Source: an uncultured virus (IMG/VR IMGVR_UViG_3300032294_002400)
Taxonomy: Duplodnaviria; Heunggongvirae; Uroviricota; Caudoviricetes
DNA length: 64,000 bases
Virus record (IMG/VR): IMGVR_UViG_3300032294_002400
Reading direction: 5' to 3' (one strand)
Positions within the stretch are counted from its first letter, which is position 1, and the number at the start of each line of letters is the position of its first letter. Of the stretch, positions 23,881 through 55,163 are shown piece after piece. The position numbers were made by a program, and so were the translations under genes. The notes under the pieces were generated by a model. It saw nothing but the letters and a program-made list of their open reading frames with translations. It made no database searches and was not told the origin of the DNA.

Positions 23881-24049
23881 TCTTGAAAAAGAGTTTAGCA
23901 ACAGCCCTCTACGCGAGTCAATGCTGCAACTTCATGAAATGTATCTAGAGTTACGTGCGTCTGGCTTTAGCAAGAAACAGTCTTTATATTTAGTCTCTAA
24001 GGTCTTAACAACTGCGGTGTCAGGAAGCATGGACGATTTGAATGATTAG
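23873..24049 (+). CDS. 58-aa hypothetical protein (absent from the ORF track)
   Basis: ATG 23873 to TAG 24049 gives MSDLEKEFSNSPLRESMLQLHEMYLELRASGFSKKQSLYLVSKVLTTAVSGSMDDLND. It overlaps both neighbours and fills the gap. Confidence 0.65.
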   Translation: MSDLEKEFSNSPLRESMLQLHEMYLELRASGFSKKQSLYLVSKVLTTAVSGSMDDLND

Positions 24050-31052: not shown

Positions 31053-32264
31053 ATGAAGGTATTGATGAGTGGTTTTACCGCGTTGCAAATCAACACGGAA
31101 AAACGTACAATACAAAAGATTGACGTGCCTGCGTCTATCGCAAAGGCATTACGTGAGGCTGGACATGAAGTTGACTGGCGTAAAATTACTCCAGGCGAGG
31201 ATCTTTCTGGCTATGACGTTTTATGGATCAATCTTGCTCCACTCAACTCATTAAATGGTCGTCAAGGTGCGATGGGTGCACTTTACGCTCTATCGTCAGG
31301 CATTCCTTGCGTAGGATTCTTTGATGATTGGCAGTTTAATACCGTATTCAATGGCGCTCGTGCTTTGATTCGCAAACCTGCGATGTTGTATAAGCATCTA
31401 CTTGTAGGGACTGAACATCGCGGTGAAGAAGGCGCAACTTATTTTAGTCGTGCAGATATTGAGGCAGCGCTTGAGCGTGTCAGAGAATTGAACCCAGCGG
31501 CTGCAAAGAAGTGTTATATCGAACGTTACTACATGATGGACACAGATGAAAACGTTCAGCCGTATGAAAAGCGTCTTGTTGAAGCAGCGCGTGATCTTTT
31601 AGCAGATCGTTGGACAGCAGGCATGGTTCCAGTTTGCCCTATGTACTCATTTGGTGATAGAGCCATTGTGCGTAAGCGCATGCCTGATGAAGTAGGACCT
31701 ATTGAAGCTCTTGATCCGACATCAACTGTTGTACCAACTCTTCAACCAGTAACCGCGCTCCCGTCAGAGCACAAGAAAAAAGCTTGGGTGCTTGGAGCTC
31801 TCATGCCACACGACACTTGGCTGGAAAAGAAAAATCCAGACTGGCCAGTCGAGATTGTTGGCAGTCGTAAGCTTATTAAGAAGCTTGGCGGACAGAGATT
31901 TGATACAGAGCAGGACGTTTTAGAATTCTACAATAAGCATTGGGGAATTCTTTCTCCACCGTACCCACATGCGGGGTCAGGCTGGTGGCGTAGTCGTTTT
32001 CTATATGCAGCGCACGTTGGTTCTATCCTTGTTACCGATAAAGGTGAAGGTGATCCACTAGGTGATGCGTATAAGTTAAAGATCTCCGACGTCGAGAAGA
32101 TGACAGACGCAGAGTTGCATGAAGCGGCTATGGCTCAACGTGCAGCTCTTGCTCCGTACTTGCCAGAGTATTCAGCGTTTGTAGATCATTGCGACCGTAT
32201 CATTAAGCGTGCGGTTGCGGAGGACAAAGGTCTTGCACGAAAGGCAGATGGTACTCTTGTATGA
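31053..32264 (+). CDS. GT-B-like glycosyltransferase, candidate DNA-base glycosyltransferase
   Basis: MKVLMSG, AL..AGHEV, DLS.YD, FFDDWQ and PPY...GWWR.R motifs; located in the DNA metabolism block. Confidence 0.6.
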   Translation: MKVLMSGFTALQINTEKRTIQKIDVPASIAKALREAGHEVDWRKITPGEDLSGYDVLWINLAPLNSLNGRQGAMGALYALSSGIPCVGFFDDWQFNTVFNGARALIRKPAMLYKHLLVGTEHRGEEGATYFSRADIEAALERVRELNPAAAKKCYIERYYMMDTDENVQPYEKRLVEAARDLLADRWTAGMVPVCPMYSFGDRAIVRKRMPDEVGPIEALDPTSTVVPTLQPVTALPSEHKKKAWVLGALMPHDTWLEKKNPDWPVEIVGSRKLIKKLGGQRFDTEQDVLEFYNKHWGILSPPYPHAGSGWWRSRFLYAAHVGSILVTDKGEGDPLGDAYKLKISDVEKMTDAELHEAAMAQRAALAPYLPEYSAFVDHCDRIIKRAVAEDKGLARKADGTLV

Positions 32265-33304
32265 GTAAAATTCTTATCACCGGAATGAGTGCGTCTCATT
32301 CATCTGAGAAAGCCAACTCGCGCTCGCTATCTTTTGCTGGCGTGATTAAGCTTGTGCTTGAACAGCAAGGGCATGAGGTTACACAGGCAAACCCTGAGGT
32401 CTCCTGGAACTTAAAAGATCTTGAACAATATGACTCCGTGCTTGTTGGAATCAGCCCGTTGACAAGTCTTAGCGCAAATCACGTCTATGGTGCGTTAAGT
32501 GTTATTGACGTGCTGCTTGATTCGCCTAAGCTCCATCTACTCATTGACGCACCAGAGCCTGCAAAGATTACAGCAAGCCTACGCGCAATGGTTAAGACTC
32601 CTGACAACCTCACCAAGCCTTTTTATTCATATCGCAAAGGGTTTAGCTCGGCTACTCAGCCAAACATGCTTGAAAACCTTCTAGAGGTTATAGATCATCT
32701 TGTCAACAAGAAATGGCCAACTACACTGTATCCAGCGTTGCCGTGGACAGATACTACAAAGCACATCGCTAATTATCTGCCAGACGGCGCGACAGATTCA
32801 CTTGTTGGAATCAACCTAGACGCTTATTTAATTTCTACGCAAGACATCATTGAAACCGAACGTCGTGAAAAGTGGGTTGTAGAAAATTACTCAACAAAGT
32901 GGATTAAGTCTACTACTGCAACTTTAGCCTTGCCTACCGTTCCTATGAAGTGGAATAAGGCTTGGACAGACGCGCAGGTATCCGCGCAGATAGCCTCTGG
33001 CTTTGGTGCGCTTATTCCTCCTTATTCTTCTAGCACGTGGTGGAGTTATAGATACATTCAATGCATGAATGGCTTAACTCCTATCGCGACAGACTGGAAG
33101 GAAAGCCAACTTGTTGGCTTATCATGGACACATCTTGCGTCAAGTATTGAAAGTATGACGCAGGAGCAACGTATTCAGCTTGCCAAGGATCAACGTAGCT
33201 CATATATTGAACATATACCTACACGTAGAGACGCGGCAGTCAGTTTATCACAGGCGCTAGATCTATTCACGAGAAAAGAGCAAACTAATGTCCACCTTGT
33301 TTGA
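32261..33304 (+). CDS. Paralogous GT-B-like glycosyltransferase
   Basis: KILITG, L...GHEV, DL..YD and PPY...WW.YRY align by eye with the previous ORF; ATGA coupling. Confidence 0.55.
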   Translation: MSKILITGMSASHSSEKANSRSLSFAGVIKLVLEQQGHEVTQANPEVSWNLKDLEQYDSVLVGISPLTSLSANHVYGALSVIDVLLDSPKLHLLIDAPEPAKITASLRAMVKTPDNLTKPFYSYRKGFSSATQPNMLENLLEVIDHLVNKKWPTTLYPALPWTDTTKHIANYLPDGATDSLVGINLDAYLISTQDIIETERREKWVVENYSTKWIKSTTATLALPTVPMKWNKAWTDAQVSAQIASGFGALIPPYSSSTWWSYRYIQCMNGLTPIATDWKESQLVGLSWTHLASSIESMTQEQRIQLAKDQRSSYIEHIPTRRDAAVSLSQALDLFTRKEQTNVHLV

Positions 33305-33773
33305 TAGTTGGTTAAAGCGTACACGTGACCTACAAAAAGACGTGTACTTTATTAACTATGAAGAAATGGAAGGCGACAAGGACGCAAACATCCGTCGTCT
33401 TATCGAGTACATGCGCTGGAACATGCTAGCCATTGACGACGAGCTTGCGGAGATGCGTCAGGCGATTTCATGGAAGCCTTGGCAGCATGACAAGCCTTAC
33501 GCAGACCGCGAAGAAATCATTAAAGAGGCAGTTGACGTTTTGCACTTTGTTGCAAATATCATCGTTGCGGCTGGCGGAACAGACGCACAGCTAAACAAGT
33601 ATTATCTTGAAAAGATGCAGCGTAACAAGCAGCGTCAGTTAGACGGATACAAGATTAAAGACATTGGAGTAAAGTGTGCTCTGTGTCAGCGCGCAATTGA
33701 CGACGTAGGGCGTGGTGCAACGCCTGATATGTGCGCTAAATGTTTACCTAAGGAGGATGGACACGATGCCTGA
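33288..33773 (+). CDS. All-alpha nucleotide pyrophosphohydrolase (dimeric dUTPase / dCTPase-like)
   Basis: E..E......WKPW, E..D..HF, Y..K...N..RQ..GY; C-terminal CxxC..CxxC. Confidence 0.8.
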   Translation: MSTLFDSWLKRTRDLQKDVYFINYEEMEGDKDANIRRLIEYMRWNMLAIDDELAEMRQAISWKPWQHDKPYADREEIIKEAVDVLHFVANIIVAAGGTDAQLNKYYLEKMQRNKQRQLDGYKIKDIGVKCALCQRAIDDVGRGATPDMCAKCLPKEDGHDA

Positions 33774-37388: not shown

Positions 37389-37894
37389 GCGGATCACTAG
37401 ATCTTAGTTGGCAAAAAGATTCAGCATGTGGACAGCAGGTAAATGAAGATTTTAGAGATTTCTTCTTTTCGTCCGAGCCTGCAGAAAAATATCAAGCAAA
37501 GAACCTTTGCTTCTCTTGCCCTGTAAGAAAAGAATGCCTAAAGTGGGCGCTTGAACATAAACAGATCTGGGGAATCTGGGGAGGAAAGGACGAAGGAGAG
37601 ATTCGTCGCACGCTTTCTGTATCCTGGAACGGACAGGAATCACGTCGTCAACGTTTCCCGCAATGCCCTTATTGCAACGCGCGACCAAATAAACTTAAGA
37701 CATTGGTTGTAGATACTCCAGGCGGAGGACGTTGGGCGACTATGCGTCTTGTTAAGTGCGAAGCTTGCGACTTTACCTGGCGCTCACGAACAAGCGCTAA
37801 CGCGGTAGATGCGTATCATACACAGCGGGAAGAGAAACTTGCAAAGGCTAAGACTAAGAAGATAAAGAAGAAAAAGAAAAAAGAAACGACTTAG
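37385..37894 (+). CDS. whiB: WhiB-family transcription factor with C-terminal zinc ribbon and basic tail
   Basis: W...AC, AK..C..CPV...C...AL and GIWGG; extra CPYC..CEAC; Lys-rich end. Confidence 0.88.
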   Translation: MSGSLDLSWQKDSACGQQVNEDFRDFFFSSEPAEKYQAKNLCFSCPVRKECLKWALEHKQIWGIWGGKDEGEIRRTLSVSWNGQESRRQRFPQCPYCNARPNKLKTLVVDTPGGGRWATMRLVKCEACDFTWRSRTSANAVDAYHTQREEKLAKAKTKKIKKKKKKETT

Positions 37895-38754
37895 ATCTCT
37901 CGTTCTCTGTAAAGTTTTGTTTGTGTTGCTGGATCTTTAAGATGCTCCATCCACCAGCGACAGGCTTTTTCATTTTCTGTCAATGTTAAGACTCCCCAGA
38001 TGCGACGATTATCTAGGTATTGAGGAATTCCTGCCTTACGTGCAGACTCCGAAAAGATCATATACTCCCAGCGATCTGACTCCTCCATGTAACTCAACTT
38101 GTCGATGTACTCGCGCTTAATCAAATATGTGCAGTGAACGCACATGCAGTCAATTAGACCTTTAATGTCCTGGTCAAGAATCTTATAGTACATGTCGTTA
38201 GCAATAATAGAGCCGTAGTCGTCTACAACATGATGGTAATTTGAGTAGTACTGTCCGCGATGTCCCTTGATCTTTTCCGCTTCCTCAGGAGTATCCTCAA
38301 CGTCTCCAAACGCAACCGCGTACCGCAGCATTGGCGAGACGATAGGAAGCTGAAGTGCAACAAGTTCCTTTAAAGTATCTGGGTAGATAAAGTTGTCAAT
38401 GTCTACTACAAAGTAATAGTCCGCATCGGAAAGAAGAGATTGACGTAGGCTTTCCTGGCGAATACGCGCAAGGACTCTAAAGCGTTCGCCGTTCCATGTA
38501 TGGACACCATATTGCTCGATGTTTTCCGGAACATTTTTAGTCTCGAAAGAGATGCTACGATATTTAGGACCGTGGATACCGATCCAATCTGCAAGGATTG
38601 CCTCGGTGTTATCAGTGTTGTTGTTCGTACGAACGTATAGATGGATCTTGTCCTTAGGGTAGTCCCATGCCTCAAGATTCTCCAGGAAAAAATTAAGTAC
38701 ACCTTCCTTTTGCTTTGCCAGTAAAGCTACAAAGACTACGGGTGCATCTGTCAT
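37891..38754 (-). CDS. Glycosyltransferase resembling the N-terminal GT-A domain of procollagen galactosyltransferase (COLGALT/GLT25D)
   Basis: VALLAK..L..L....YPK..I.L...T.NN.DNT..IL..W, W...R.....RQ..L, DY.F.VD.DN, P..L..L......V.PML, YSNY and VH.TYLI. Confidence 0.75.
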   Translation of the reverse strand: MTDAPVVFVALLAKQKEGVLNFFLENLEAWDYPKDKIHLYVRTNNNTDNTEAILADWIGIHGPKYRSISFETKNVPENIEQYGVHTWNGERFRVLARIRQESLRQSLLSDADYYFVVDIDNFIYPDTLKELVALQLPIVSPMLRYAVAFGDVEDTPEEAEKIKGHRGQYYSNYHHVVDDYGSIIANDMYYKILDQDIKGLIDCMCVHCTYLIKREYIDKLSYMEESDRWEYMIFSESARKAGIPQYLDNRRIWGVLTLTENEKACRWWMEHLKDPATQTKLYREREI

Positions 38755-39809
38755 ACTTGGTTCTCTATGCCCATCTCGTAAAATCTCATGTTGTTGCGTA
38801 GGCGTAGATCCGCAGGGTTTCCATCAATTGCAAGCTGGCCATATTTAACAGCCTTTGCCTTATCGCCAAGGTTGTGCGCTGATAGAGCTTGCATGTCATA
38901 TAGACGCCACTTCCATAGCTCTTCGCTAGATAGATAATGAGATGTTTTTTCACAGCGCGCCGCAATCTTGCACGTTTCCCAAACTCCGCCCCAGTCTTGC
39001 TGCTCGTAGTAGCAACGAACTTTTTCAAAGTAGTTTTCACCGCAAGGGTCAATTTCAATCGCGCGGTCTGCCCACATCATTGCATTTTCAGGCTGTCCTA
39101 AAGCTCGACACGCCTCGCTTGCCCAACGGCAGACAGCAGCTCTTTCAACAAACCAGTCCTTACTAAAGCTGTGAACTTTCTCAGCGCTTGATAGCACTAG
39201 ATCCCACATCTTGTAGAACATATACTCGCGAGTTAAATACACCCAGATGCGGTGATCTTCTCCAAACTCCTTTGATGCTGCAACAAGCATAGGTAGGTAT
39301 TGTCCACGTGATTTTGTGTTGTCTGGCTTGTGAGACATCTTAGTTCCGGTGATAGTTACGCTTTTAATTCCTGTATCAAGCGATGGAACAAACACCTCGT
39401 GAATTGGGTACTTCCAATACATGCCGTGCCGTGCGTGAAGGCGTGCGCCTAGCCAGGTGTGTCCTGTATCAAAATCACACCAACCTTTGTTAGCTCCAGG
39501 AATCCACTGCTTGCGAACCTCGTCAAAAAAGTTTTCATCTACAAGCTCATCCATATCTAAAGACAGGCAGACGTCTATATCGTCTGGCAATAAACTTTGT
39601 GCAGTGTTACGCGCAACGTCAAAGCGCCAGGGCTTTACTCTAATTTCGTGAACTATGACTCCATGCTCACGTAAGATCTCGACCGTACGGTCTGTGGATC
39701 CAGTGTCACAGACTAGGCGGAAGTCCGCATCCTTGGTAGTTTCTGCCCAGCGGGCAGCATGTTTTTCTTCATTTAGCGAGATGGCGTATGCGGCAACTTT
39801 CATGGTCAT
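38751..39809 (-). CDS. GT2 glycosyltransferase with C-terminal TPR repeats
   Basis: YAI..NE, DTGSTD.T, WRFD.ARN, LD.DE and HE motifs; helical TPR-like C-terminus. Confidence 0.85.
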   Translation of the reverse strand: MTMKVAAYAISLNEEKHAARWAETTKDADFRLVCDTGSTDRTVEILREHGVIVHEIRVKPWRFDVARNTAQSLLPDDIDVCLSLDMDELVDENFFDEVRKQWIPGANKGWCDFDTGHTWLGARLHARHGMYWKYPIHEVFVPSLDTGIKSVTITGTKMSHKPDNTKSRGQYLPMLVAASKEFGEDHRIWVYLTREYMFYKMWDLVLSSAEKVHSFSKDWFVERAAVCRWASEACRALGQPENAMMWADRAIEIDPCGENYFEKVRCYYEQQDWGGVWETCKIAARCEKTSHYLSSEELWKWRLYDMQALSAHNLGDKAKAVKYGQLAIDGNPADLRLRNNMRFYEMGIENQV

Positions 39810-39962: not shown

Positions 39963-40871
39963 CTATAGGTTAAAAAATTGAAGCATTTCTTCTTGGCTAA
40001 ACCTATCCTTATTATTTTCACTGTTTATAGAAAAATTATGGATTTCAGACGTGTCACGCAGGATATATCTGTCATGTTGCTCTTCGACAGTGCCTATGTC
40101 ATTTCTGCATAGCAAATCTTCATGCATTTTTTCTGTTTTCCTCATGCCGATGTACTCTATTTCATCATCAGTGGCTATCAAAGTTGCAATGTCGTATACT
40201 AAAGCACTTTTCATTTTGGGCAAAAAAAGTTCTCCTCCAGAAGAATTAAGTAGAGAAGATATGCAAAACTTTGCAGCGTCTTTTTCAGAAATAAAAAATC
40301 TTGTCATTTTTTTGTCAGTTATAAATATTTTTTCTTGGGCAGTAATTGCTGTTTTCCACTTTTTAAAAATTGATCCGTTACTTCCAATTACGTTTCCGTA
40401 CCTTAACGCAGAAAACCTTGTGTCTGAAAAAGAATTTGCCAAAATAACATTTTTTTCTGCAAGCAGTTTAGTTGTGCCATATAAACTTGTTGGGGCACAA
40501 GCTTTATCACTAGACGTTAAAATCATTCCAGCCACGCCGTTCTGAATGCACGCGTTAACAACGTTATTTGTACCTACAACGTTAATATTTGTAGTTTCAT
40601 ATGGAATTTCTGCGGCTATATCTATATGCTTATTTGCCGCTGTGTGTATAACATAATCAATGCCTCTTGTAGCTAAAAAAATTGAATTAAAATCTTTTAT
40701 GTCTCCTACAACAAATTTTATTTTTTTATTTTTAAAAAGATCTTTCATTGCCATTTGTTCTTTTATGTTTCTTGAATATACTACTATTTCAGACACTGAA
40801 TTGTCAAGCAATAGTTCTTTACAGATAGAGTGTCCCACAGATCCTGTGCCGCCGGTTACTAAAAATTTCAT
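39963..40871 (-). CDS. UDP-N-acetylhexosamine 4,6-dehydratase (PseB/CapD-like SDR)
   Basis: TGGTGS.G, H.AA.KH, S(S)DKA..P..YG.TK, RYGNV.GS.GS and MTRF motifs. Confidence 0.88.
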   Translation of the reverse strand: MKFLVTGGTGSVGHSICKELLLDNSVSEIVVYSRNIKEQMAMKDLFKNKKIKFVVGDIKDFNSIFLATRGIDYVIHTAANKHIDIAAEIPYETTNINVVGTNNVVNACIQNGVAGMILTSSDKACAPTSLYGTTKLLAEKNVILANSFSDTRFSALRYGNVIGSNGSIFKKWKTAITAQEKIFITDKKMTRFFISEKDAAKFCISSLLNSSGGELFLPKMKSALVYDIATLIATDDEIEYIGMRKTEKMHEDLLCRNDIGTVEEQHDRYILRDTSEIHNFSINSENNKDRFSQEEMLQFFNL

Positions 40872-40884
40872 TTGCTAATTCACC

Positions 40885-41601
40885 TTACTCATCAAACTGT
40901 CCAAGTTTTTCTATATTTTTATAGTACTTTGACTCAGAATCAACGTATAAAGTAGTTAATACTGTTGTTGCTATAGGCAAGTATCCTTTGCCTTCTAAAG
41001 CTTTTCTTATTGGAGAGTCAGAAAAAATAGAGTTACTTATGTCTTCAATCATGATAAAAGGTATTTTTACGCTACTAGAGTAGGTACTTATTACGTCTAA
41101 ATCTTTTCCTTCAATGTCAATACTCATAAAGAAAGGTATTTCTTTAAAATAAGAAATGTGCATATTGACTATTTCATCTATAGTTTTTGCTTGAACTGTC
41201 TTTACAACAGCAATGTCTGTTCGCTGAGATTTTACCTTTCTTTCAGCGTATTCTAATGATGTTGTGTTAGACGAGTCGTAGTCTGCAAAAACATAAAATT
41301 CTTTTTCACCAGACTCTACTTCTACTGCGTAATTAAGAAGTAAATCATTTGGTCTTGTCTCTTTGATTACTTGGTTGTAGTGTGGGTTGGGGTCAACTAA
41401 AGTCCCTGTCCATCCCCGCCTGTGCAAGAAAAATGTATTAGAGTACATTACTGGATGAAACGCGCCTACGTCTAAATAAGTTTTTTTATCAAATAGATTA
41501 GTATTCATTACCCACGAAAGATGCTGCATTACTCCGTTTAACAGCGCATCTTCTCCGTAAGAACCATAAGAATCAAATGGCTTATACTCCGTTTGATCCA
41601 T
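40885..41601 (-). CDS. FkbM-family methyltransferase
   Basis: S.GED, YLDVGA.HP...SNT, GW.G..VDPN and SID.EG.D motifs. Confidence 0.8.
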   Translation of the reverse strand: MDQTEYKPFDSYGSYGEDALLNGVMQHLSWVMNTNLFDKKTYLDVGAFHPVMYSNTFFLHRRGWTGTLVDPNPHYNQVIKETRPNDLLLNYAVEVESGEKEFYVFADYDSSNTTSLEYAERKVKSQRTDIAVVKTVQAKTIDEIVNMHISYFKEIPFFMSIDIEGKDLDVISTYSSSVKIPFIMIEDISNSIFSDSPIRKALEGKGYLPIATTVLTTLYVDSESKYYKNIEKLGQFDE

Positions 41602-41603
41602 TT

Positions 41604-42407
41604 TTACTCACTTCTTGGTTCATTTTTAACAAATAAAACATTCCATTGTTTTCCAGAACAAATGTCTGAAAATTCAACTCGGGTCATTGTGTCAATGTCA
41701 TAGCAAAGTCTTCCAAAAGCTACTTCATTAAAAAAACTTTTTGAAGTATATGGACCCATTTCCATTATAATATACGGAGTATTTTTTATATTGTCGGTTG
41801 CACCACTCCAAAAGTCTTCTTCTCCTCCTTCTATATCAACCTTTATTAAGTCTGGTTGCTCATCTTCTAATGCTAAACTATCGACCCTTTTTATTTCGCA
41901 TTCTATAGTTTCCCATTCGATATCTAAAAAAGAATTTGCAAAGTCTTTAAATGATTCTTTAAACGTTGATCCGCCAAGATTGTCTTTATTTACCATAAAC
42001 TTTGTATTCTTAGTTTCGCTACCTAAGCCGAAAGAATGTACATGTATGGGCGCAGCGTTTTCATAAGTATTTAGTTTTTGAGCAGCAATATACTTGTTTA
42101 CTAAGTCTATCTGTGGTTCAAACGCACGTACTAATCCTTTTGGCCCGGAAAGCCTTGACGAAAGCTCAGTAACTTCAAACATATTAGCTCCAACGTCATA
42201 CACAACCCAACCTGGTTTTACATTTTTAATTAGCCATTCTGCTAAAAAAGGATCAAAAGTTCCAGATTGCTCTACGTATTTTTTATGAATATAGTCATTT
42301 TTGTAGCCAGCAAATAAGTAAAAATCCATATACTTTGATTTCACAAAATCATTATCACCTGTTTGATCTTGGTTCATTTGATTTTCATCCATTTCATTTT
42401 TATTCAT
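41604..42407 (-). CDS. FkbM-family methyltransferase
   Basis: DVGAN, V.AFEP, GLG and KVDIEG.E motifs. Confidence 0.8.
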   Translation of the reverse strand: MNKNEMDENQMNQDQTGDNDFVKSKYMDFYLFAGYKNDYIHKKYVEQSGTFDPFLAEWLIKNVKPGWVVYDVGANMFEVTELSSRLSGPKGLVRAFEPQIDLVNKYIAAQKLNTYENAAPIHVHSFGLGSETKNTKFMVNKDNLGGSTFKESFKDFANSFLDIEWETIECEIKRVDSLALEDEQPDLIKVDIEGGEEDFWSGATDNIKNTPYIIMEMGPYTSKSFFNEVAFGRLCYDIDTMTRVEFSDICSGKQWNVLFVKNEPRSE

Positions 42408-43134
42408 TAAACAGTCCTAAAACGTATTTATTGTAGAAAAACTCTATTGCTGACCCTGAAGGCAGATTATTTTTGTCTATTCCAGCCCTAGACGCCATTT
42501 CGTTATACACGCTAAAACTTTTTATATTTTTAGAAATTTCAATAACATTTTTAAAATGTTCTGGCGTCCACAGGTAGTACCAGTCTTGCCACTCTATTCC
42601 ATTGACCAAAGATTCATCGATTAAGTACCTTTTATAGTCTGGAAACATATCAAAGGCTTTATTAAGAATATTTGAATTGGTATCCGTCCACCCGAGAAGA
42701 GACCTGTCTACCATGTCCGATGACTTTATTATATGCTGAAGTATGTCTGATCCTTGGGGCAGTCTGAAGATTCCGTTTTGAACTTCTCCATTGTGTTGCA
42801 TGATGCAATAGTATTCGTCGTCAGGGAACCACTCGTCTGTCAAGCAAATAGTGTCTGCGTCTACCCAACCAAAATTAAATTTTTCAACCATTTTGTATCT
42901 AAATACGTCTGCAAAATTGGCCATGTTTCCAATTCCGTCGTACGCCATCACGTCATTAGCGTCTCTCAGAACGACTTGATCTGGAACTTTTCCAATATCT
43001 TCATACACAAAAAGGTTTACTTTATGGCCGTGTTTTACAAAAGAACTAAAACATATCTCTTGTATTTTTGTTATGTTTTTACCTACCCAGAGAGAACCTA
43101 GTTCTGCCACGACCCTACCTCTTTCTTTATACAC
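42400..43134 (-). CDS. DXD-motif glycosyltransferase (GT32 / alpha-1,4-GT-like)
   Basis: SLWVG, SF..HGH...LF.Y, DAN, FAD.FRY and W.DAD motifs. Confidence 0.75.
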   Translation of the reverse strand: MYKERGRVVAELGSLWVGKNITKIQEICFSSFVKHGHKVNLFVYEDIGKVPDQVVLRDANDVMAYDGIGNMANFADVFRYKMVEKFNFGWVDADTICLTDEWFPDDEYYCIMQHNGEVQNGIFRLPQGSDILQHIIKSSDMVDRSLLGWTDTNSNILNKAFDMFPDYKRYLIDESLVNGIEWQDWYYLWTPEHFKNVIEISKNIKSFSVYNEMASRAGIDKNNLPSGSAIEFFYNKYVLGLFNE

Positions 43135-43208
43135 CTATAGGATTGTGAATCCGGGCTAATACTGACATGCGTACTATAAAATAGTATCATATAGGGCACT
43201 GTTAATAG

Positions 43209-44693
43209 CTAGAATATATAATCTTTTCCGTATTTAGACGTAAAATATCGCACATTGTCGTTAGAAGAGGTTTTCCACTCTTCTCTAGAATGCTCTAGAG
43301 ACACTCCTATTCCGTCAATATAGTCAAAAAGTCTTCCATACTTATCTAAGTACCTTTTGTGATAATCTATGTCTTCTTGTCCCCAGCCGACGTAGTTTTC
43401 GTCAAAACCGCCTAGCTCGTTAAAGGTTTTTTTAGTTATAACGAGCAGACCAGAGCACACCCATAAGCGGTCGGTTTTTCCGTCTTTTAGCTTAGGGTTA
43501 GTATTTCTTCTGTTATGTAAGTTAATAGATTCTGGTCGCTCTTCTAAAAACTTTTTTGTTCCTTCGTACGACAACTCTACGTAGTCGTTGTAAGGAAGAC
43601 TGATATGCTCTGTTTTAATTGAATTTAATATCGCTTTTATTAAAGAATCTTTTGATGGAAAAAAATCAGCATCACTTGATAAAACTATGTCTGCGCCACC
43701 CTCGAACGCTTCTATTATCCCTTTATTCCTGCTAGACGAAAGATTAAAAATTTGATGATTACTATCAGATAAGATAATACTAAACGTAGGAAATTCTTTA
43801 CAATACCATTTTGTTAAATAAGTAAATATTTCAGCTCTTGATTCTGTTCTTCTCCACGGAATTACGACAGCTATTTTTTTATTAACTATTATATTATCTA
43901 AAAAAGATTTAGAAAAGTAGCTTTTATTACTGGTGCTGATTATGTCTTGATACTCAATAGTTGTAGACTTTGACCACCTTACTTCATAGTCATTTGCGCT
44001 TTTTACATTTTGCCTATGGTGCTCGTCTGACACTTGTATTGATGACTTTGATATATTAAATGAAAAAAGAGGACAAGAGATAGTAGTTGTCATACCGTAC
44101 ACGATCCACTCGGCGGTTGGCTGAGACAAAATATAGGCATTATTTCTATAATCTAGAATACTTAAACTGACAAAATTATCTAAAACAAATATATTATTTT
44201 TAATATATGTGTCTACTAGCTTTTTTCCATATTTTCTGCTTATTAAATACACTGTACAGTTAAAGTCCCATGGGGTTCTTTCATGCGCATTAAAGTTTAA
44301 ACTTACATCTTCTCTTGTAGAAATTGCCAGTTGAAAGCATTCAGTACCTTTAAAATTATTAAATAAATCTGTAATAGTAAAATTGATCTTTTTAAGGTTA
44401 TCGAGCTTTGCATCATCTTCACAAAACATTGCATACTCGTCGTCTGAGTTTTCTATAAAATATTTTATAGCAGTTAAATGTGATAAAGAAGTTGCAATTT
44501 CTACATTTCTACAGCCTTTGGTCCGCCCCTGGACTAAAGTAGATTCTGGAACATCAAACTCAGTTAGTGCTTCTATTCTTTCATATCTTTTTATGCCAAG
44601 TTCTGACATTTGTTGAATAAAAATATCATCTCTGTCTTTTCTTTCACTAAGATTGATATAATATATTTTGTAATTTTCTAAAAACTTTGTCAT
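43209..44693 (-). CDS. Two-domain glycosyltransferase: GT25-like N-terminus plus GT2/GT7-like C-terminus
   Basis: N-terminal YINL..R.DR, SH..A and EDD; C-terminal VIPWR, FN.S..RN.G, DAD and GGFDE.Y.GWG.ED. Confidence 0.8.
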   Translation of the reverse strand: MTKFLENYKIYYINLSERKDRDDIFIQQMSELGIKRYERIEALTEFDVPESTLVQGRTKGCRNVEIATSLSHLTAIKYFIENSDDEYAMFCEDDAKLDNLKKINFTITDLFNNFKGTECFQLAISTREDVSLNFNAHERTPWDFNCTVYLISRKYGKKLVDTYIKNNIFVLDNFVSLSILDYRNNAYILSQPTAEWIVYGMTTTISCPLFSFNISKSSIQVSDEHHRQNVKSANDYEVRWSKSTTIEYQDIISTSNKSYFSKSFLDNIIVNKKIAVVIPWRRTESRAEIFTYLTKWYCKEFPTFSIILSDSNHQIFNLSSSRNKGIIEAFEGGADIVLSSDADFFPSKDSLIKAILNSIKTEHISLPYNDYVELSYEGTKKFLEERPESINLHNRRNTNPKLKDGKTDRLWVCSGLLVITKKTFNELGGFDENYVGWGQEDIDYHKRYLDKYGRLFDYIDGIGVSLEHSREEWKTSSNDNVRYFTSKYGKDYIF

Positions 44694-44805
44694 AAGTTCT
44701 CTATGCTTTTAAGATTTAAAAGTCTAATTAACGACTTGATTTTTTTATACTTATATGCTAAAGAAAAATTGCTGCTGTCTACATAAATCATTACATATTT
44801 CATAA

Positions 44806-45393
44806 TTATAAAGCTCTTAAAAAATCTTTATTTGGAAATAAAGCGCTGCTTTTTATCCCTAAAAAATAGCATATCTTTTTTTCAATTTGGTCGTCGCTTA
44901 ATGATAAAGTTAAAAGTCTATCTGTTCCATAAAAAAAGTCCTTTACACTTTTTCTATGCTCATTGTAGTATTCAAGCTGTTCTTCTTTAGACAAAACTGG
45001 ATGTTTTTCAACATCTATACTTATATACTTGCCATAGTATATTTTTTCAAATTTTGTTAAGAACTCTCTTTTAAACTTGGTTTTTTCTTTATACGAGACG
45101 CACGACTCGTACCATGCAAGAGGATCTCTCTCTACTAATATGAACTTTGCGTTTGGATACTTTTTAGAAAAGTGATCATATAAAAAAGTATATGGTGTGT
45201 CGTTAAAAGCGTTAAAAGATTCTTCTAATGGAGATATTAAGTCAATTATATCTTTTTCATTGTTAAATTGATCTAAATCAAAATCTATAGTTTGACCTAT
45301 CCAATGGTGTGACTTATAGCCTATGCTAGTTAAAAAATCGTGCATTGACTGTGTGCCAGAGCGAGGGCTGCTGACATTAAAAACTTTATCCAT
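44806..45393 (-). CDS. Sulfotransferase (P-loop, PAPS-dependent)
   Basis: 5'-PSB-like PRSGT.S, D.P, YPNAKFIL..RD...W..S and FLG motifs. Confidence 0.75.
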   Translation of the reverse strand: MDKVFNVSSPRSGTQSMHDFLTSIGYKSHHWIGQTIDFDLDQFNNEKDIIDLISPLEESFNAFNDTPYTFLYDHFSKKYPNAKFILVERDPLAWYESCVSYKEKTKFKREFLTKFEKIYYGKYISIDVEKHPVLSKEEQLEYYNEHRKSVKDFFYGTDRLLTLSLSDDQIEKKICYFLGIKSSALFPNKDFLRAL

Positions 45394-45445
45394 TATAACG
45401 CTCCCATAGACGTACTATAACATGTTCCTACTAACAGTGAGGTAG

Positions 45446-46135
45446 CTAAAGATCGTTTGTATTTCTAATGTTATCTGGGTCAATTGTTGATTTGATATTT
45501 ATGTAGTCGTGCTTTAAAAAATAAAGATTATCTGGAACTATAGAGTACCCGTCGACAGTTCCTTCATGGCACTGACGAAATACAAAGCAGTCTGTAGTGT
45601 ACTGTATTCCTGTTCTTTTTAAAATTTTTAAAAGCGTTTTCGCTCCAGAAAAAGAATAAACCATCGCTTGTCCTGCAGAAAACTGAGTTAAGGCTCTATG
45701 TATATATCGAGAACCAATGTCTGTTTTTTTATCAAAACTATTTTGTTCTTTAAAATAGTACAAAGATAGAAAGTCAAAATCTTTAGGCAAGTCATTTAAG
45801 CACAACTGCAAATTTGATACAAAATCTTTTTCCAATACTACATCATCTTCTAGCATTAAAAACATGTCAACATTGTTATTAACTATATACTCCCACACGT
45901 TAATTGTGCTTACCCAAACTCCTAACTCTCCAGGCAATGGCGGAAGAGACCTTCCATCATACGGATTCCATACATCTTGTCTAATACCCTTATGATTTAT
46001 TACGTCCCAGGCATTTCCTTTGTTTCCATTAAAAAATTCTATACTGTTTACATGCTCGAAACCAGACAATATAGACTTGTTATAGTCCATATTTTCTTTT
46101 GATCTATCGTTTATGTGAACAATTGTATATTTCAT
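45446..46135 (-). CDS. GT25-family glycosyltransferase
   Basis: GE.G.W.S...W and LEDD motifs; LP.DFD. Confidence 0.75.
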   Translation of the reverse strand: MKYTIVHINDRSKENMDYNKSILSGFEHVNSIEFFNGNKGNAWDVINHKGIRQDVWNPYDGRSLPPLPGELGVWVSTINVWEYIVNNNVDMFLMLEDDVVLEKDFVSNLQLCLNDLPKDFDFLSLYYFKEQNSFDKKTDIGSRYIHRALTQFSAGQAMVYSFSGAKTLLKILKRTGIQYTTDCFVFRQCHEGTVDGYSIVPDNLYFLKHDYINIKSTIDPDNIRNTNDL

Positions 46136-47235
46136 TATAGGTATTTAGCAAAGTTTTCAAACTTTTCTCTTCCAATCCTTCCTATAAGACTGTCAATTGC
46201 GTCATTAGTTCTTTTTTGCCAATTATACTCTGAAGTGACTTGATCAATCTGATTATAAAATAGATCTGATTGATGGTCAAAGTCTTCAACGGCTTTTTTC
46301 ATTAAGTAAACCATTGAATCTATGTCTGGCAAAACAACATTACCGTGCCGTACGTATGTTTCAACTATTGGAGATACTCCCAATGTTGATTCGATAACGT
46401 TTCCATTTAAAAATTTTTCATACGAACACCAACGACTTGTCGATATTACTGGCATTCCAGTAGCCAGTGCTTGAAGAGGGATTAGTCCAAACCCTTCTCC
46501 TTCTGATGGATAAATAAGAATGTCATGAAACTTAAAAAGACTTACGAGTTGATCTAGTGTGATATTTTCTTTAATATGCCTTACGGTGGCTGACTCCCAC
46601 GTCCCTCTTTCGGCAAGAACAGATTCATCGTGCCAATCTGCGTCGGACTGCGAATAATGACTATGCTTTAATGTTATTTCATAGCCAAATTTTCCTCCGA
46701 ATGCCTTTTTAAAAGCTTCTACTGCTAATGGCGCACGTTTTCTTGGCGATCCAGAGTCTACGTGAAGAAATCTAATAACATCTTTTCTTTTTCTTTTACG
46801 AGGAGTCCACACTGAAGCGTCTACTCCATGTTCGAACACATGTATTTTTTCTGCAGGAACACCTGCGTCAATAAAGGCGTTTGCTCCGAACTGATTAGCA
46901 GTCCACCATTCGTCGTAGCGTTTTGCATGATCTACCCAGTTAGGTGGGATTAGTGTTGACTCCCATTGAGTCATTTGAATTTTATATTGATGGTCGTAAA
47001 AAAACCCTCCAGGAGATCCATAGTAAAGTTGCACTTGAGATTTAGGAGAATTTATGTCAATGCTTATTTGTTCGTCGTTATATTTATACTGCCTTAGGTG
47101 TTTTGCTATCTCTTGATACGTGTACGCGTACCCGAAATAAGACCCAGACGCTCTAACGTGCGGGTCGGCATATAAGGACATTCTAAACATTTTGCCTGCT
47201 CCTCTCCATTTATGCTCTGCCTTACAGATACGCAT
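46135..47235 (-). CDS. GT4-family (GT-B) glycosyltransferase
   Basis: WES..P..W, HGVD, RK and YPS.GEGFGL.PLQA.ATG.P.I motifs. The true start may be a few codons downstream. Confidence 0.85.
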   Translation of the reverse strand: MRICKAEHKWRGAGKMFRMSLYADPHVRASGSYFGYAYTYQEIAKHLRQYKYNDEQISIDINSPKSQVQLYYGSPGGFFYDHQYKIQMTQWESTLIPPNWVDHAKRYDEWWTANQFGANAFIDAGVPAEKIHVFEHGVDASVWTPRKRKRKDVIRFLHVDSGSPRKRAPLAVEAFKKAFGGKFGYEITLKHSHYSQSDADWHDESVLAERGTWESATVRHIKENITLDQLVSLFKFHDILIYPSEGEGFGLIPLQALATGMPVISTSRWCSYEKFLNGNVIESTLGVSPIVETYVRHGNVVLPDIDSMVYLMKKAVEDFDHQSDLFYNQIDQVTSEYNWQKRTNDAIDSLIGRIGREKFENFAKYL

Positions 47236-47320: not shown

Positions 47321-48187
47321 CTAGGAGATGTCGCCTATTACTAAGAAAGTGTTACTTGCGGTGCACACTAACGACGCTGCTGAATATTGTGCTCTGAGCT
47401 TAGGAGCCGAGGCAGTCGCACCTGTTGAAATTATCGTAACTCCAGATCCTTGCGCAAACGTGACCTGCCCTGAACCAGTCTGCGCTACGTTGACAACGTC
47501 GTTCGGGCTAAAAACTGAAGGAGGCACGGTAATTGTTATTGCACTAGCATTATTTAAAGTTACAAGGTCATTAAGATCTGTTAACTGCAAAGTATAGCTT
47601 GTTCCTGTGTCATTATTTATTGCAAGGATTGCTCCTGCAGCTCCTGTTGCGCCTGTTGCTCCTGTTGAACCTGTACTTCCAATCGCACCTGTTGCGCCAG
47701 TAAGTCCTGTCGCTCCTGTAGATCCGTTAGTCCCATTAGATCCTGTAGGACCAGTCGCTCCTACCGCGCCAGTCTCACCAACAGCTCCTGTAGGACCAGT
47801 AACTGTTGAGCCGGTAGAACCAGTCGGGCCGGTGTTGCCAATTGCGCCCTTTGCGGCGAGCAAGTCCCAACGTGCGGACGAGCCTGGAATGTGCGACATG
47901 ATGTCGCCTGATGAAATAGCTGTGTTGCAGTAGTAAGTGCTGCCGTTATATTGAACAACGTCACCGACGCTGTATCCGATAAAATCGAAAGCAGCTTCCC
48001 AGTTAATTCCTGTAATGCCCGTTGCGCCTGTCTGGCCTACTGCTCCAGTTGGGCCGACGGCGCCCGTTGCTCCTGTAGGCGCGAAATTACGAATTACCTT
48101 CCAAACACTGCCGTCCCATCGCCAGGTAGTAGAACCCGACGTAAACTCGTCGTTTGACGACGGAGTGTTAGGAAAATCAATAGGCAT
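47321..48187 (-). CDS. Collagen-like fibre protein
   Basis: G-X-T repeats. N-terminal PIDFP.TP..W.W module and C-terminal YTL..D......ITVP..Q.G.GQVT..LR.QYS domain. Confidence 0.8.
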
Positions 48188-48250
48188 AGGTCTCTCTCAT
48201 CTGACGTGACTCTAGGGCATACTATACTACAAATCTCGGTTTTTATCTTA

Positions 48251-48291
48251 AAAGAAACGCCCGTCTTCCGAAGAAGAACGGGCGTTTCTTT
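48251..48291. terminator. Intrinsic (possibly bidirectional) terminator
   Basis: AAAGAAACGCCCGT...ACGGGCGTTTCTTT inverted repeat downstream of the 48304..51264 gene. Confidence 0.8.
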
Positions 48292-48303
48292 GTTAAGAAT
48301 GGG

Positions 48304-51270
<2,967 letters not shown>

Positions 51271-51360
51271 TCATTTCACTCGAGTGGGAGAATTCCCGGG
51301 TGATATTCTATCCTCTATCAAATAAAATGATTAGGATAGTTTAAGGATTACAAAAAGGGA

Positions 51361-53148
51361 TTACCAGGACCCAGCTGTCCACGCAATACGATACCAAATT
51401 TTAGTTGAGTTGTTAACGTAGTTTTGTGTACAGAAGTAGTAATACGTTGCGTCAGAGGCAACGTCACCTGCTAAGTTTCCGGAGACTCCGTAGTCATGAG
51501 CTGGGACAGAAACTATACGACCAACACCGTCTGCGCCTGTTGGGCCAGTCTCTCCTAACGCACTGCTCGAAGCTTCTAGCCAGAAGCCGTCATAGAAAAT
51601 AAAGAACGTTCCACTTGAAGGATCAAACCATGCGTCACCAGTTTCTGCACCAGTTGGAGGTGTACCTTCATTTGTTGAGAAGATTGCGTCTGCGCCCGTT
51701 GGGCCGGTAGGTCCTGTTACGCCAGTCTCGCCTTTTTGAGCAATAAGAGTCCAGAATAGTCCTTCAGAAGGAGTGTCTCCAGTGTTTCCGCCATGAGCAT
51801 CAATGCGGTACCAAGTCTGTCCTTCGTAAGTTACTACGTCGCCAACTGCGTATGGCAGACCTAGATTATAAGCGCCAGTGAAGTTCCATAGAGCGTCTGC
51901 GCCCGTTGCGCCAGTAACGCCATCTGCTCCGGTCGTACCAGTTATTCCATCAGCTCCAGTAACTCCGGTATTTCCTGTTACACCATCTGCGCCTGTTGCA
52001 CCAGTCTGGCCTGTTGCTCCATCATTACCTGTCGCGCCTGTTGCTCCGTCTGCGCCAGTCGCACCATCAGCTCCGGTGACACCCGTTACACCTGCAGCTC
52101 CTGTTTCTCCTTGCGCGCCTGCTGCTCCGTCATTGCCTGTGGCACCAGTAGCTCCTACTGCGCCAGTAGCGCCTGCTGCTCCTTGTGGCCCAACAATTTG
52201 ACCAGCGTCGCTCCAACTTGAACCGTTCCAAACCCAAAGATTACCGTCTGCATCTACGATGTACGCATCATTGGTAGTGTTTCCAGTTGCTGGAAGTGAA
52301 CCAGTGTCTGCAACACTTCCAACAAAGTTGATGCTGACACCTTGTGGCCCTGTAGGTCCTGTTGCGCCGTCTGCACCAGTCGGACCAGTTGCACCAAAAC
52401 CATCAGGCAATTGTTCAAGAGGGACCTTGCCTGTAATATCAAGCTCGGCGACTCCGCCTGTCGCGCCTTTTTGCGTAAGCGGAATGTAGTCGCCAAGTGC
52501 TCCAGTAAGACTGTCAGTGCGAACAAGGTCATCAGGAAGTTGCTCATCGGGGACTACGCCTGATGCATTAAGAGTAGCAAGACCACCAGCAGTGCCTTCA
52601 TCTAATGAAAGTAAGCCAGTGCCAGTGTCATAGTTAAGAGAACCTGTAACGCTGATGATTGGGCTTTCGCCTGTTGGACCAGTCGCACCGTCTGCGCCGG
52701 TAGGGCCAGTCGCGCCAGTCGGGCCTGTCGCTCCACTGCCGCCGCCAGAAATAGAATCAATCTGCTCGCGATAAGTTTCAGCAATGATACCTGCTGCAAG
52801 AAGCTCGTCAATTCCTTGCTGAGTAAACGAAGGCTGCTCAGGTAAAAGAAGATTAGTAGTTACTGCAAGAATTACACCTGTGCCGCCAGGAGGCTCGATT
52901 GGGTCTCCTGCAGAGTCCCAAGAAACAACTAGGCTTATCGGGTTAACTGATACGTCAGTTAGCGAAGTAATTTCATAGCGAACTGCACCTGCGGTGTTGT
53001 CGTACAGATAAACGCGTTGGCCAATAGAAACATCTCCTGGACCATACAGCCCGGAGTCATCGATAAACGTTCCAGATATGTTATAGACACCTGTGGATGT
53101 TTCAGCTACTGATGTTACCGCAAAGCGACCGGATAGAGGTTTTGTCAT
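51361..53148 (-). CDS. Collagen-like fibre protein
   Basis: GAT/GPT/GAD repeats; modules shared with neighbouring collagen genes; C-terminal G...D..Y.Y.C....W.R. Confidence 0.82.
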
Positions 53149-53161
53149 TTGCTATCCTTCC

Positions 53162-55030
53162 TTACGCGAAGCTAAAACGAATAGTTCGGTTGGCGGCTGG
53201 CATTACCAATGACAATGCATAGTTGCCACTTAATGAAGCAAGGTTAGAGTTAGGCGATGACTGTGCGTTTGTATCTTCACGCCATTGGAATATCATAGGC
53301 GGATATCTGTCTGCCGCCGAGGAGTTTAGTCCTACCGCCGCGTAGTCAAAGATCAAAGGCGATGCAACACTTGAAGGCAAACGCATCATTCCTCCAAGCA
53401 GTGTTACCCCTGCGTAGCCTGTTGGAGCAGATAGCGTAACGGTTGAAGAAACGCGTGACATGTTGTATCCGCGTGAGTAAGTTGCAGATGATCCACTGCT
53501 TGTTCCGGTGTTGTCTACAGGAACTGTAAATGTGTTTGTGTCTACAAACGTAGCAACTAATGATTGAGCCATAGGCACGTTTGCGTTGCGAAGGATAATA
53601 CGGTCACCTGTTGAAACTCCATGGAACGGAGAAGTCACTGTTAAAGTTGTACCAGAGCGTGACCACGTAAGAGATGATTTTTGGCCAGAGTCATATGAGT
53701 GTAGATAAAATTCTTCGCCGCTTGTTGTCTGTACTTGATAGCGCTCAACAAATACTACAGAGCCGGATCCCGCAGCGCCTGTAGGGCCAGTCGCACCAGT
53801 CTGCCCTGCACCGGTAGCTCCTGTAGCACCAGTAGCGCCTGTTGCACCTGTTGCACCTGTTTCACCAGCGCCTGTTGGGCCGGTAGGACCTGTTGGGCCT
53901 GCAACAGTTGAGTCTGCACCGGTAGGACCAGTAATGCTTGCGCCTGTTGCGCCCGTAGCTCCTGTGTTACCAACTGCACCAGTTGCGCCAGTGTTGCCTG
54001 TTGCACCAGTAGTACCAGCGCCTGTCGCACCAGTTGCACCGATGGTTCCGTTAATTCCGTTTGCACCAGTTGGACCAGTCGCACCAGTCTGTCCTGCGCC
54101 TGTCGCGCCAGTAACACCAGTATTTCCAGCTACACCTGTTGGGCCAGTCGCACCAGTCTGCCCTGCACCGGTAGCTCCTGTTGGACCAGTCGCACCGTCA
54201 ACACCGATAGTTCCATTAGTACCTGTTGGTCCTTGTGGGCCTGTTGCTCCAGTGGCACCAGTTGCTCCAGTGACACCAGCACCAGTTGCTCCAGCAGGTC
54301 CAACAATCTGACCTACGCTTTCCCAAGCAGATCCGTCCCAGATATAAAGGTCACCATCTGCAGTAACAATGTACGCATCGTTTGTTGAGCCTGTCGGTGG
54401 AAGAGATCCAACGTTAGCAACTGTGCCAACAACATTGATTGAAGTTCCTTGAGGACCAGTAGCACCGGTTGCGCCCGTAGCTCCAGTTGAGCCAGAGCCT
54501 GTTGCGCCAGTTGCACCTGTCGCACCTGTAGGAGCACCAGCAGGACCAGTCGGTCCTGTTGCTCCAACAGTGCCGACGCCTGTTGCGCCAGTAGCACCGG
54601 TTGCACCTGCTGCACCAGCAGGACCGATAGGTCCGCGCGCAGTAGTTGTAGAAGCTGATGAAACGTAAGATGAAGTTGTTGAAGGAACTAGGCGAGCGAT
54701 TTGAGTAAATAGATCAATATCTGATCCATCGCCAAGAGGTAAAAATACTCGTACGTTTACAGACTTAACTCCGTTGATTCGAACTGCAACTTCATAGGCC
54801 CAGCCTTGAGGAGTTACGAGAGGATTGTCTGTTGTTGGAAGCTCTACGCTAAATGAGCCAGTGCCGTCAAGAGTAACAGTAGTAGGACCGCTAAGAACGA
54901 CAGAGTCATCAGGGTCATAAATTGTAGCGGTAGGGGTGAACGTAATAGTTCCAATTCCCGCAATCCCGCGGGATGTAACATAGGTGCCTATGACGGTACG
55001 TGTTACAACGTCCTCAGACCAAGTTGGCAC
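53162..55030 (-). CDS. Collagen-like fibre protein with actinophage minor-tail-type N-terminal anchor domain
   Basis: Probable GTG start at 55030. N-terminus G.ITFTP..TLD..G.FSV.LP.TD....GW.Y.V, then GAT/GPT repeats. Confidence 0.8.
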
Positions 55031-55163
55031 AGAAGCTCCGTTCCTCAAAACCCAACGCACCTATGCTTGCAACGTCAAAATGACATTGGTAGGCGACAGG
55101 TTAATACTACCAAATAATTAGAATCTTTACTTAGGCATTTTATAATTTTTTAAGATAGATGTC

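Follow-up and report, generated by a model that had tools for sequence, protein, structure and literature searches.

The question raised by this locus is why a phage should encode a protein that looks like one half of the animal enzyme that galactosylates collagen. The stretch analysed here (the window, 64,000 nucleotides of the uncultured virus IMGVR_UViG_3300032294_002400) is a siphovirus-type phage genome with portal, major head, tape-measure, Dit-like, DNA polymerase, primase, endolysin and WhiB genes; from this gene set, including the WhiB regulator, the host is probably an actinobacterium. The gene in question (37891..38754, minus strand, ATG start) encodes a stand-alone protein of 287 residues. 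By the order of its motifs, an initial annotation had likened it to the N-terminal GT-A domain (GT1) of the collagen galactosyltransferase COLGALT1. Together with nearby genes of glycosyltransferase (GT) family 25, it was read as a split viral counterpart of the animal enzyme. We found that the protein is genuinely and specifically homologous to the GT1 domain of COLGALT1, that its conserved partner is a GT2 protein with tetratricopeptide repeats (TPR), and that its family is genomically tied to Thr-rich collagen-like genes across several bacterial phyla and phages.

Searched with phmmer against 177,635 PDB sequences, the 287-residue protein matched 12 at E <=10. Human COLGALT1 takes the first four places (E 1.7e-19 to 3.3e-19, over query residues 3-150), ahead of LH3 (E 0.15-0.18), a generic GT2 enzyme (0.34) and then noise. 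Every motif listed in the initial annotation is present in the translation and aligns to COLGALT1. Within residues 3-150 these are (phage/COLGALT1) VFVALLAK/VLIALLAR, TNNNTDNT..L..W/TDHNMDNT..L..W and ADYYFVVDIDN/ADYILFVDADN, together with W...R.......RQ..L and PDTL..L......V.PML. The C-terminal motifs YSN, VH.T.LI and S....A....Y..N....G are joined to COLGALT1 via a bacterial relative, P0229. The polypeptide holds one domain only and lacks the GT25 catalytic domain with its EDD motif, which the bacterial relatives P0229 and P0169 do have, and it has no family in PHROGs and NCBIfam scans.

The AlphaFold model, built on an alignment of 34 family members, has a mean predicted local distance difference test (pLDDT) score of 94.5 and a predicted template modelling (pTM) score of 0.92. 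Structural similarity search of this model against the PDB using Foldseek placed COLGALT1 first (E 2e-24, TM 0.77-0.78, 25% identity over 291 columns), followed by LH3 (7e-18), mimivirus R699 (3e-14) and generic GT-A enzymes from 2e-10 or weaker. Superposition using VIA-align against COLGALT1 residues 48-320, the GT1 domain, gave a Z score of 30.9 and a root mean square deviation of 2.1 Å over 252 residues at 27% identity. The accessory (AC) domains of LH3 (residues 293-541) and R699 (residues 250-455) followed with Z scores of 26.8 and 21.9, respectively. The relation to PLOD/LH3 that had also been claimed holds for LH3 as a match, but the matching part is this central AC domain, not the catalytic GT domain of LH3. 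When predicted viral structures were searched, the model was matched best by PLOD- and COLGALT-like proteins of giant viruses rather than by phage proteins.

We then compared the ligand site with that of COLGALT1 GT1, in which 12 residues contact UDP-Gal (the uridine diphosphate (UDP)-linked sugar) and the metal (PMC12003778). The residues were mapped through the sequence alignments of COLGALT1 with the phage protein and with P0229. Six of the 12 are identical (COLGALT1/phage: L59/L12, W135/W87, R139/R91, R147/R99, D166/D118 and D168/D120), and four more are conservatively changed (R61/K14, D91/N44, V143/L95 and D265/E230). Over the 34 family members, down to 37% identity, no variation is seen at W87, R91, R99, D118, D120 or H207, and conservation at E230 is at least 90%. 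The DxD motif is D118-I-D120, and E230, aligned to COLGALT1 D265, lies at the start of helix 230-240 in the model. Inverting GT-A enzymes carry an xED base at this position (PMC7185993); E230 would be its candidate counterpart, a placement made by topology, not by superposition. All candidate catalytic positions are kept in the phage sequence.

The conserved partner of the gene is the one directly upstream (38751..39809, minus strand), the stop of which overlaps the start of the 287-residue protein in the tetranucleotide ATGA. It encodes 352 residues with an N-terminal GT2 domain (residues 30-98) and a C-terminal TPR domain (residues 229-328), and matches phrog_13126 with an E value of 3e-68. 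We sampled 80 related viral loci and 78 bacterial loci. A GT2+TPR gene is present in 63 of the viral loci, and in 58 it lies directly upstream of the homologue on the same strand, with stop and start overlapping or abutting; in five others it is on the opposite strand and fused to a methyltransferase. In one phage sub-lineage (L050 and L063, about 9986-12549), the homologue is inverted and co-directional with WhiB, and a GT2+TPR protein with a C-terminal methyltransferase fusion (559 residues) is followed by GT25, GT25 and GT4 genes.

In bacteria the same pairing recurs within single polypeptides. Among 42 bacterial fusion open reading frames (ORFs), a GT2 domain is N-terminal to the GT1-like domain in 34; ten carry a methyltransferase, and six carry a GT25 domain, which is C-terminal to the GT1-like domain in five of the six. 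One bacterial protein (L153, 639 residues) aligns end to end with both phage proteins. Relatives annotated as “glycosyltransferase family 25/2 protein”, such as P0169 and P0212 of Mesorhizobium and P0124 of Methylobacter, are 45-52% identical to the phage protein over ~90% of its length, and our literature searches found no characterisation of these multidomain proteins. The GT2 part of P0169 matches GmaR, the flagellin O-GlcNAc (N-acetylglucosamine) transferase of Listeria, with an E value of 7e-9.

The family is large and prokaryotic. A near-length search retrieved 452 metagenomic proteins, mostly of 285-288 residues, and an exhaustive search gave 810 representatives (50% identity level) at E <=0.001, 292 of them at E <=1e-30. 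Longer relatives comprise 223 multidomain proteins, with 42-52% identity among the 120 listed, some of them bearing names such as Mesorhizobium, Methylobacter, Rhodoblastus and Heyndrickxia. The relatives are encoded by 252 viral contigs and 164 species genomes, and the best 150 and best 120 search matches are all prokaryotic or metagenomic; tblastn and megablast searches against deposited phage genomes gave no match. In a midpoint-rooted tree of 103 domain segments, restricted to non-eukaryotic rows (the searches brought up no COLGALT GT1, PLOD AC or giant-virus sequences), all 25 viral and all four Actinomycetota rows fall on one side of a branch with a Shimodaira-Hasegawa-like approximate likelihood ratio test (SH-aLRT) support of 98. 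Bacillota form one group, and the phylum labels need six changes, the minimum possible. By this tree the phage copy is a diverged actinobacterial-type branch. Stand-alone copies also occur in amoeba-associated lineages, namely Parachlamydiales (L125, a metagenome-assembled genome (MAG)), Babeliales (L133 and L145), Dependentiae (L128, L147 and L149) and Protochlamydia (L137), by way of which bacteria, giant viruses and eukaryotes could conceivably be connected. In the Parachlamydiales MAG, six collagen-like genes stand in tandem within 9 kb.

What such a protein might act on is suggested by the neighbouring collagen-like genes. The window has four collagen-like tail-fiber genes (47321-48187, 48304-51264, 51361-53148 and 53162-55060; span 47321..55060, minus strand), recognised by PF01391 and tail-fiber PHROGs. 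They lie on the same strand as the GT1-like gene, 8.6 kb upstream, and are built of Gly-X-Thr repeats, with Thr at position Y in 21/32, 95/162, 33/54 and 36/56 triplets, respectively. Lys is rare in these fibers and essentially absent at Y of the repeats. At the related loci Lys occupies Y in none of 987 triplets in viral neighbours and in 0.3% in bacterial neighbours, and no lysyl hydroxylase or other 2-oxoglutarate oxygenase was found among the ORFs scanned in the window; with neither Lys at Y nor a lysyl hydroxylase, hydroxylysine chemistry cannot apply. The collagen-like neighbours named in the initial annotation are thus present, with Thr, not Lys, as the candidate acceptor. Pooled over the neighbours, Thr occupies Y in 85% of triplets in bacteria and 78% in viruses, with Ala dominant at X, compared to 31.6% over all bacterial collagens and 48.3% in those of Gram-positives (PMC8968730). 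Since Thr is the norm at Y in bacterial collagens, we downgraded the argument from its being the top residue and used the degree of enrichment instead.

The link to collagen-like genes is wide in bacteria. Under strict criteria (an unbroken run of 12 or more Gly-X-Y in the longest frame only, within the available flanks), a collagen-like ORF lies within 10 kb of the GT1-like gene in 38 of the 78 bacterial loci, comprising 27 of 42 with fused and 11 of 36 with stand-alone forms; 15 of the 38 neighbours are at most 1 kb away. Where both flanks reach at least 8 kb, 12 of 15 fused forms have such a neighbour. As a genome-wide control, Pfam Collagen matches were found in only 2, 4 and ~5 frames of genomes of 9.1, 6.0 and 5.6 Mb, the largest in each genome being the neighbour of the GT1-like gene; two Paenibacillus genomes have many more Collagen matches, partly clustered round that gene. 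An extreme locus is that of Bradyrhizobium sp. ma5 (L124, 1-12412), where an enzyme of 1894 residues (TPR, GT2, GT1-like domain, GDSL and GT25) lies 848 nucleotides from a giant collagen-like gene with an open frame of 2291 residues and Thr at Y in 533 of 542 triplets. This gene accounts for 42 of the 44 Collagen matches of its genome.

Altogether, we propose that the phage protein is a UDP-sugar- and metal-dependent glycosyltransferase that works with the GT2+TPR protein to O-glycosylate Thr in the collagen-like tail fibers and adds the second sugar, a reading to which we give about an even chance. The homology, the fold, the kept ligand-site residues, the coupling and fusion of the genes and the genomic tie to Thr-rich collagen-like genes are observed; that the protein catalyses, which sugar it takes, what it acts on and that it binds its partner are inferred. 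A model for the partner is SgtA of C. difficile (358 residues, GT-A+TPR), which attaches beta-O-GlcNAc to Thr in BclA3, within its GPT collagen repeats (PMC7157674); sgtA adjoins bclA3, and the authors report having found no enzymes that extend the glycan. In the phage, the GT2+TPR protein would start the glycan by attaching a sugar, probably beta-GlcNAc with UDP-GlcNAc as donor, to the Y-position Thr of the fiber Gly-X-Thr repeats. The GT1-like protein, predicted to be a GT-A-fold protein binding a nucleotide sugar and a divalent metal, would be made from the same message, probably bind the GT2+TPR protein, and add the next sugar from a UDP-sugar, with D118 and D120 of the DxD motif and H207 holding the metal while E230 probably serves as the base. 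A variable low-GC island between the pair and the fibers would add further decoration in this phage through its GT25, GT4, beta4GalT-like domain, methyltransferases, sulfotransferase and UDP-GlcNAc dehydratase. Virion glycosylation by phage-encoded enzymes has reportedly been described in a 2023 mycobacteriophage study, which would be a precedent. A genome announcement (PMC11256854) is related to phage virion glycosylation as well.

Several observations weigh against this proposal. All three solved relatives (COLGALT1 GT1, LH3 AC and R699 AC) are described as non-catalytic (PMC12003778, PMC12279948), and COLGALT1 GT1 keeps its DxD motif and binds UDP-Gal without catalysing (PMC12003778); likeness to GT1 thus does not imply galactosyltransferase activity. 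The match of the phage partner to GmaR is weak (E 0.009), and its likeness to SgtA is one of architecture and size. In bacterial collagens at large, Thr is in any case the residue found most often at Y (PMC8968730). No collagen-like ORF was seen in the flanks at 40 of the 78 bacterial loci. Of the stand-alone bacterial forms flanked by at least 8 kb on either side, only 9 of 26 have one, and of the viral loci whose upstream flank reaches at least 5 kb, only 24 of 47 do. Nor was one seen at any of the 15 viral loci that are more distant and have no GT2+TPR, where the neighbours are DNA methylases, WhiB and unknowns. The bacterial loci were gathered with a single peptide pattern, the relatives are phylogenetically non-independent, and some “Actinomycetes” MAG contigs may be viral. 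Finally, the cassettes between fibers and GT2+TPR in related phages encode mostly Gly_rich_2 or unknown proteins, not sugar enzymes.

The alternative that survives best, which we consider unlikely on balance, is that the GT1-like protein is a non-catalytic accessory subunit, in which UDP-sugar and metal are structural cofactors and which stabilises, positions or oligomerises the catalytic GT2+TPR protein, in the manner of GT1 in COLGALT1 and of AC in LH3 and R699. Its nearest solved structures are exactly the three domains described as non-catalytic, in the phage lineage a second GT domain is nearly always coupled to the protein or fused with it, and COLGALT1 GT1, despite the same ligand-site residues, is reported as structural with Ca2+ and UDP-Gal bound (PMC12003778). 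An accessory role accords less well with the stand-alone copies that have no detectable GT2+TPR neighbour in 15 viral loci, and with the stand-alone forms in 36 of the 78 bacterial loci. Some fusions moreover have the GT1-like domain as their sole GT beside a methyltransferase (P0129 and L106). Both kinds favour catalysis over scaffolding, and the conserved acid that begins helix 230-240 and aligns with COLGALT1 D265 also tells against an accessory role.

It is less probable still that the pair serves to modify the host surface, glycosylating an envelope protein or glycopolymer for superinfection block or receptor masking rather than the virion. PMC7029224 interprets glycosyltransferases of aquatic phages beside tail-fiber genes in this way, and envelope glycans are typically made by enzymes of the GT25, GT4 and GT2 families. 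By contrast, the pair sits on the fiber strand at the end of the fiber module, and the GT1-like domain is found beside collagen-like genes in non-phage bacteria of several phyla. TPR-bearing GT2 enzymes of this type whose function is known, namely GmaR and SgtA (PMC7157674 for SgtA), act on proteins.

The split counterpart of the animal hydroxylysine galactosyltransferase, made up of the GT1-like protein and a nearby stand-alone GT25, was the reading of the initial annotation and is now very improbable. The window does have GT25 genes with an EDD motif, and bacterial fusions of a GT1-like domain with GT25 that are collinear with COLGALT1 do exist. One of the two genes cited, 45446..46135 (minus strand, 229 residues), is a clear stand-alone GT25 with an EDD motif (PF01755 E 6e-12 and 46.2 bits, with the cut-off at 24), the best PDB match of which is the GT2 region of COLGALT1 (E 6.7e-5). 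The other, 43209..44693 (minus strand, 494 residues), has a weak GT25-like N-terminus with EDD that falls below the Pfam cut-off (PF01755, 22.7 bits against 24), and its C-terminus is GT2/GT7-type, beta-1,4-galactosyltransferase-like (PF10111 E 1.7e-9; PF02709 E 1.8e-9). Both belong to a compositionally foreign island and lie 4.5-6.7 kb and several genes away from the GT1-like gene. GT25 genes occur in only four of the 80 related viral loci, compared to 63 with the GT2+TPR partner. The fibers, moreover, offer no Lys at Y, and a lysyl hydroxylase was not found among the scanned ORFs.

As for a generic GT2/Anp1-like enzyme sharing merely the GT-A fold with COLGALT1, its only footing is in Pfam, where PF13704 (Glyco_tranf_2_4) barely passes (27.7 bits against a cut-off of 27.5) while PF03452 (Anp1, GT62; 23.9 against 28.8) and PF00535 (Glycos_transf_2, GT2; 16.8 against 23.3) stay under theirs, and in a Z score of 21.3 for Mnn9 at 12% identity, and it is refuted by the lead of COLGALT1 over generic enzymes, 19 orders of magnitude by sequence, 14 by Foldseek, and in superposition a Z score of 30.9 against ~17 (SpsA, TarP, TarS and RmlT) at 27% against 11-19% identity.

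The bacterial relatives bear on the origin of the animal enzyme, as the initial annotation had surmised for the phage gene, because fusions of a GT1-like domain with GT25 in bacteria are collinear with COLGALT1. Residues 1-405 of the bacterial protein P0229 (514 residues, GT1-like domain followed by GT25) align with COLGALT1 residues 14-446 in one stretch that takes in the EDD motif (E 4e-36), and residues 404-804 of P0169 align with COLGALT1 with an E value of 2.7e-44. Both also match the full LH3 AC domain (E 1e-13 to 2.5e-15), whereas the phage protein reaches only 0.15. The AlphaFold model of P0229 is poor (mean pLDDT 63.5, pTM 0.49) and was left out of the fold comparison, so that the collinearity over both domains, in COLGALT order, is a claim from sequence alignments. 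By the same alignments the bacterial fusions are much closer than the phage copy to the animal enzymes. PMC12003778 reports BLAST hits of GT1 in animals and giant viruses only, and of bacteria with GT2 alone, which the hit lists in its Supplementary Figs 5-7 may qualify; an ancestral gene fusion was proposed there without a candidate. No earlier description of GT1 homologues in prokaryotes, or of an association between them and collagen-like genes, came up in a literature search that had most subscription journals outside its reach.

We tentatively suggest, as a possibility well short of an even chance, that COLGALT (GT1+GT25) and the accessory domain common to it and LH3/PLOD derive from a prokaryotic system that glycosylates collagen-like proteins. 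The pairing of this enzyme architecture with Gly-X-Y substrates would then predate animals, and the bacterial [GT2+TPR]-[GT1-like]-[GT25] proteins beside Gly-X-Thr genes would be living relatives of that system. The “accessory” domain would still be an active transferase in phages and bacteria, the state ancestral to the pseudo-enzyme of animals and giant viruses. What is new here is a large prokaryotic and phage GT1 family, a GT1-GT25 fusion already present in bacteria, and the tie to Thr-rich collagen-like proteins. The origin of the collagen glycosylation machinery, and whether GT1 and AC are former enzymes, thereby become testable at the bench with small soluble proteins. These loci also suggest that prokaryotes commonly glycosylate their collagen-like proteins, which a review calls the exception (PMC8968730). 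For phage biology, they point to glycosylated collagen-like tail fibers in freshwater-type actinophages, in which a swappable cassette would diversify the glycan.

In this window the cassette is the low-GC island (39963-47235, 7.3 kb), with a GC content of 30-39% compared to 44% for the GT1-like gene, 47% for the GT2+TPR gene and 45.6% for the whole window; the closest relatives, 94-95% identical, are without it. All of its genes are on the minus strand. The first (39963..40871, GC 0.33) encodes a PseB/FnlA-like UDP-GlcNAc 4,6-dehydratase of the short-chain dehydrogenase/reductase (SDR) type (PF02719 E 7e-71; TIGR03589 257 bits, under the equivalog cut-off). Two FkbM-type methyltransferase genes follow (40885-41601 and 41604-42407; PF05050 E 3e-15 and 3e-12), then an ORF of 244 residues (42400..43134) with no match in Pfam, NCBIfam or local comparison. 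A sulfotransferase gene (44806..45393, PF17784 E 4e-23) separates the two GT25-type genes, and the last gene (46135..47235, GC 0.39) is a GT4 (GT-B) glycosyltransferase by a Pfam-type scan. The phage also has an APS-kinase-like gene (adenosine 5'-phosphosulfate kinase; 63256-63951, minus strand; PF01583 E 4e-13, phrog “kinase”), which together with the sulfotransferase could make 3'-phosphoadenosine 5'-phosphosulfate (PAPS) and sulfate the glycan.

The idea that the cassettes between fibers and GT2+TPR always encode sugar enzymes was ruled out by a scan of 26 cassette proteins of relatives, which gave seven Gly_rich_2 proteins, one GT25, one GT2+TPR+methyltransferase, one weak carbohydrate-binding module and 16 proteins with no family. 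In L003, L006, L013, L029 and L061 the cassettes often hold Gly_rich_2 (PF21722) proteins, one with an FN3 domain; these Gly_rich_2 proteins are probably further fiber or receptor-binding parts.

On its other side the GT1-like gene converges on the WhiB gene, the 3' ends overlapping by 4 nucleotides (37891-37894), so that no terminator could fit between the two; many relatives show the same arrangement (gap -4 or -9 nucleotides). A tRNA search of the window found none. Elsewhere, on the plus strand, lies a nucleotide-metabolism set (22013-24521, 31053-33773 and 60060-60767) with thymidylate-synthase-like, dCMP deaminase, dUTPase_2 and kinase-like (338 residues) ORFs. With it go a GmrSD_C-like nuclease and family-less conserved ORFs of 403 and 347 residues, seen in 30 and 47 of the 80 related loci, respectively. 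The set may indicate DNA base hypermodification.

Compared to known systems, the phage protein is closest to the GT1 domain of COLGALT1 (PDB 9evj, 8zgc and 9u7h), and the DxD motif and most UDP-Gal and metal contact residues are common to both. They differ in context: COLGALT1 has GT25 attached, whereas the phage protein stands alone and is paired with GT2+TPR. COLGALT1 GT1 reportedly does not catalyse and holds Ca2+ and UDP-Gal as structural ligands, and the animal acceptor, hydroxylysine, is absent in the phage. The AC domains of LH3/PLOD3 and R699 are the next-best structural matches, with no significant sequence likeness between LH3 and the phage protein (E 0.15). LH3 AC has lost metal and donor binding (PMC12003778), whereas the phage family keeps its DxD. 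Yeast Mnn9/Anp1 (GT62) has the GT-A fold in common but ranks below the COLGALT1 and LH3 domains and R699 AC.

Among bacterial systems, the “family 25/2” proteins carry the same [GT2+TPR]-[GT1-like] unit in fused form, with or without GT25, methyltransferase or GDSL, whereas the phage has two coupled genes. SgtA and GmaR are models for the partner gene, not for the GT1-like gene, and no COLGALT-GT1-like second module is described for SgtA. They nevertheless resemble the phage partner in their GT-A+TPR architecture and in size (352 residues for the partner against 358 for SgtA). The substrate logic is also alike, in that the SgtA gene lies beside a Gly-X-Thr collagen-like gene.

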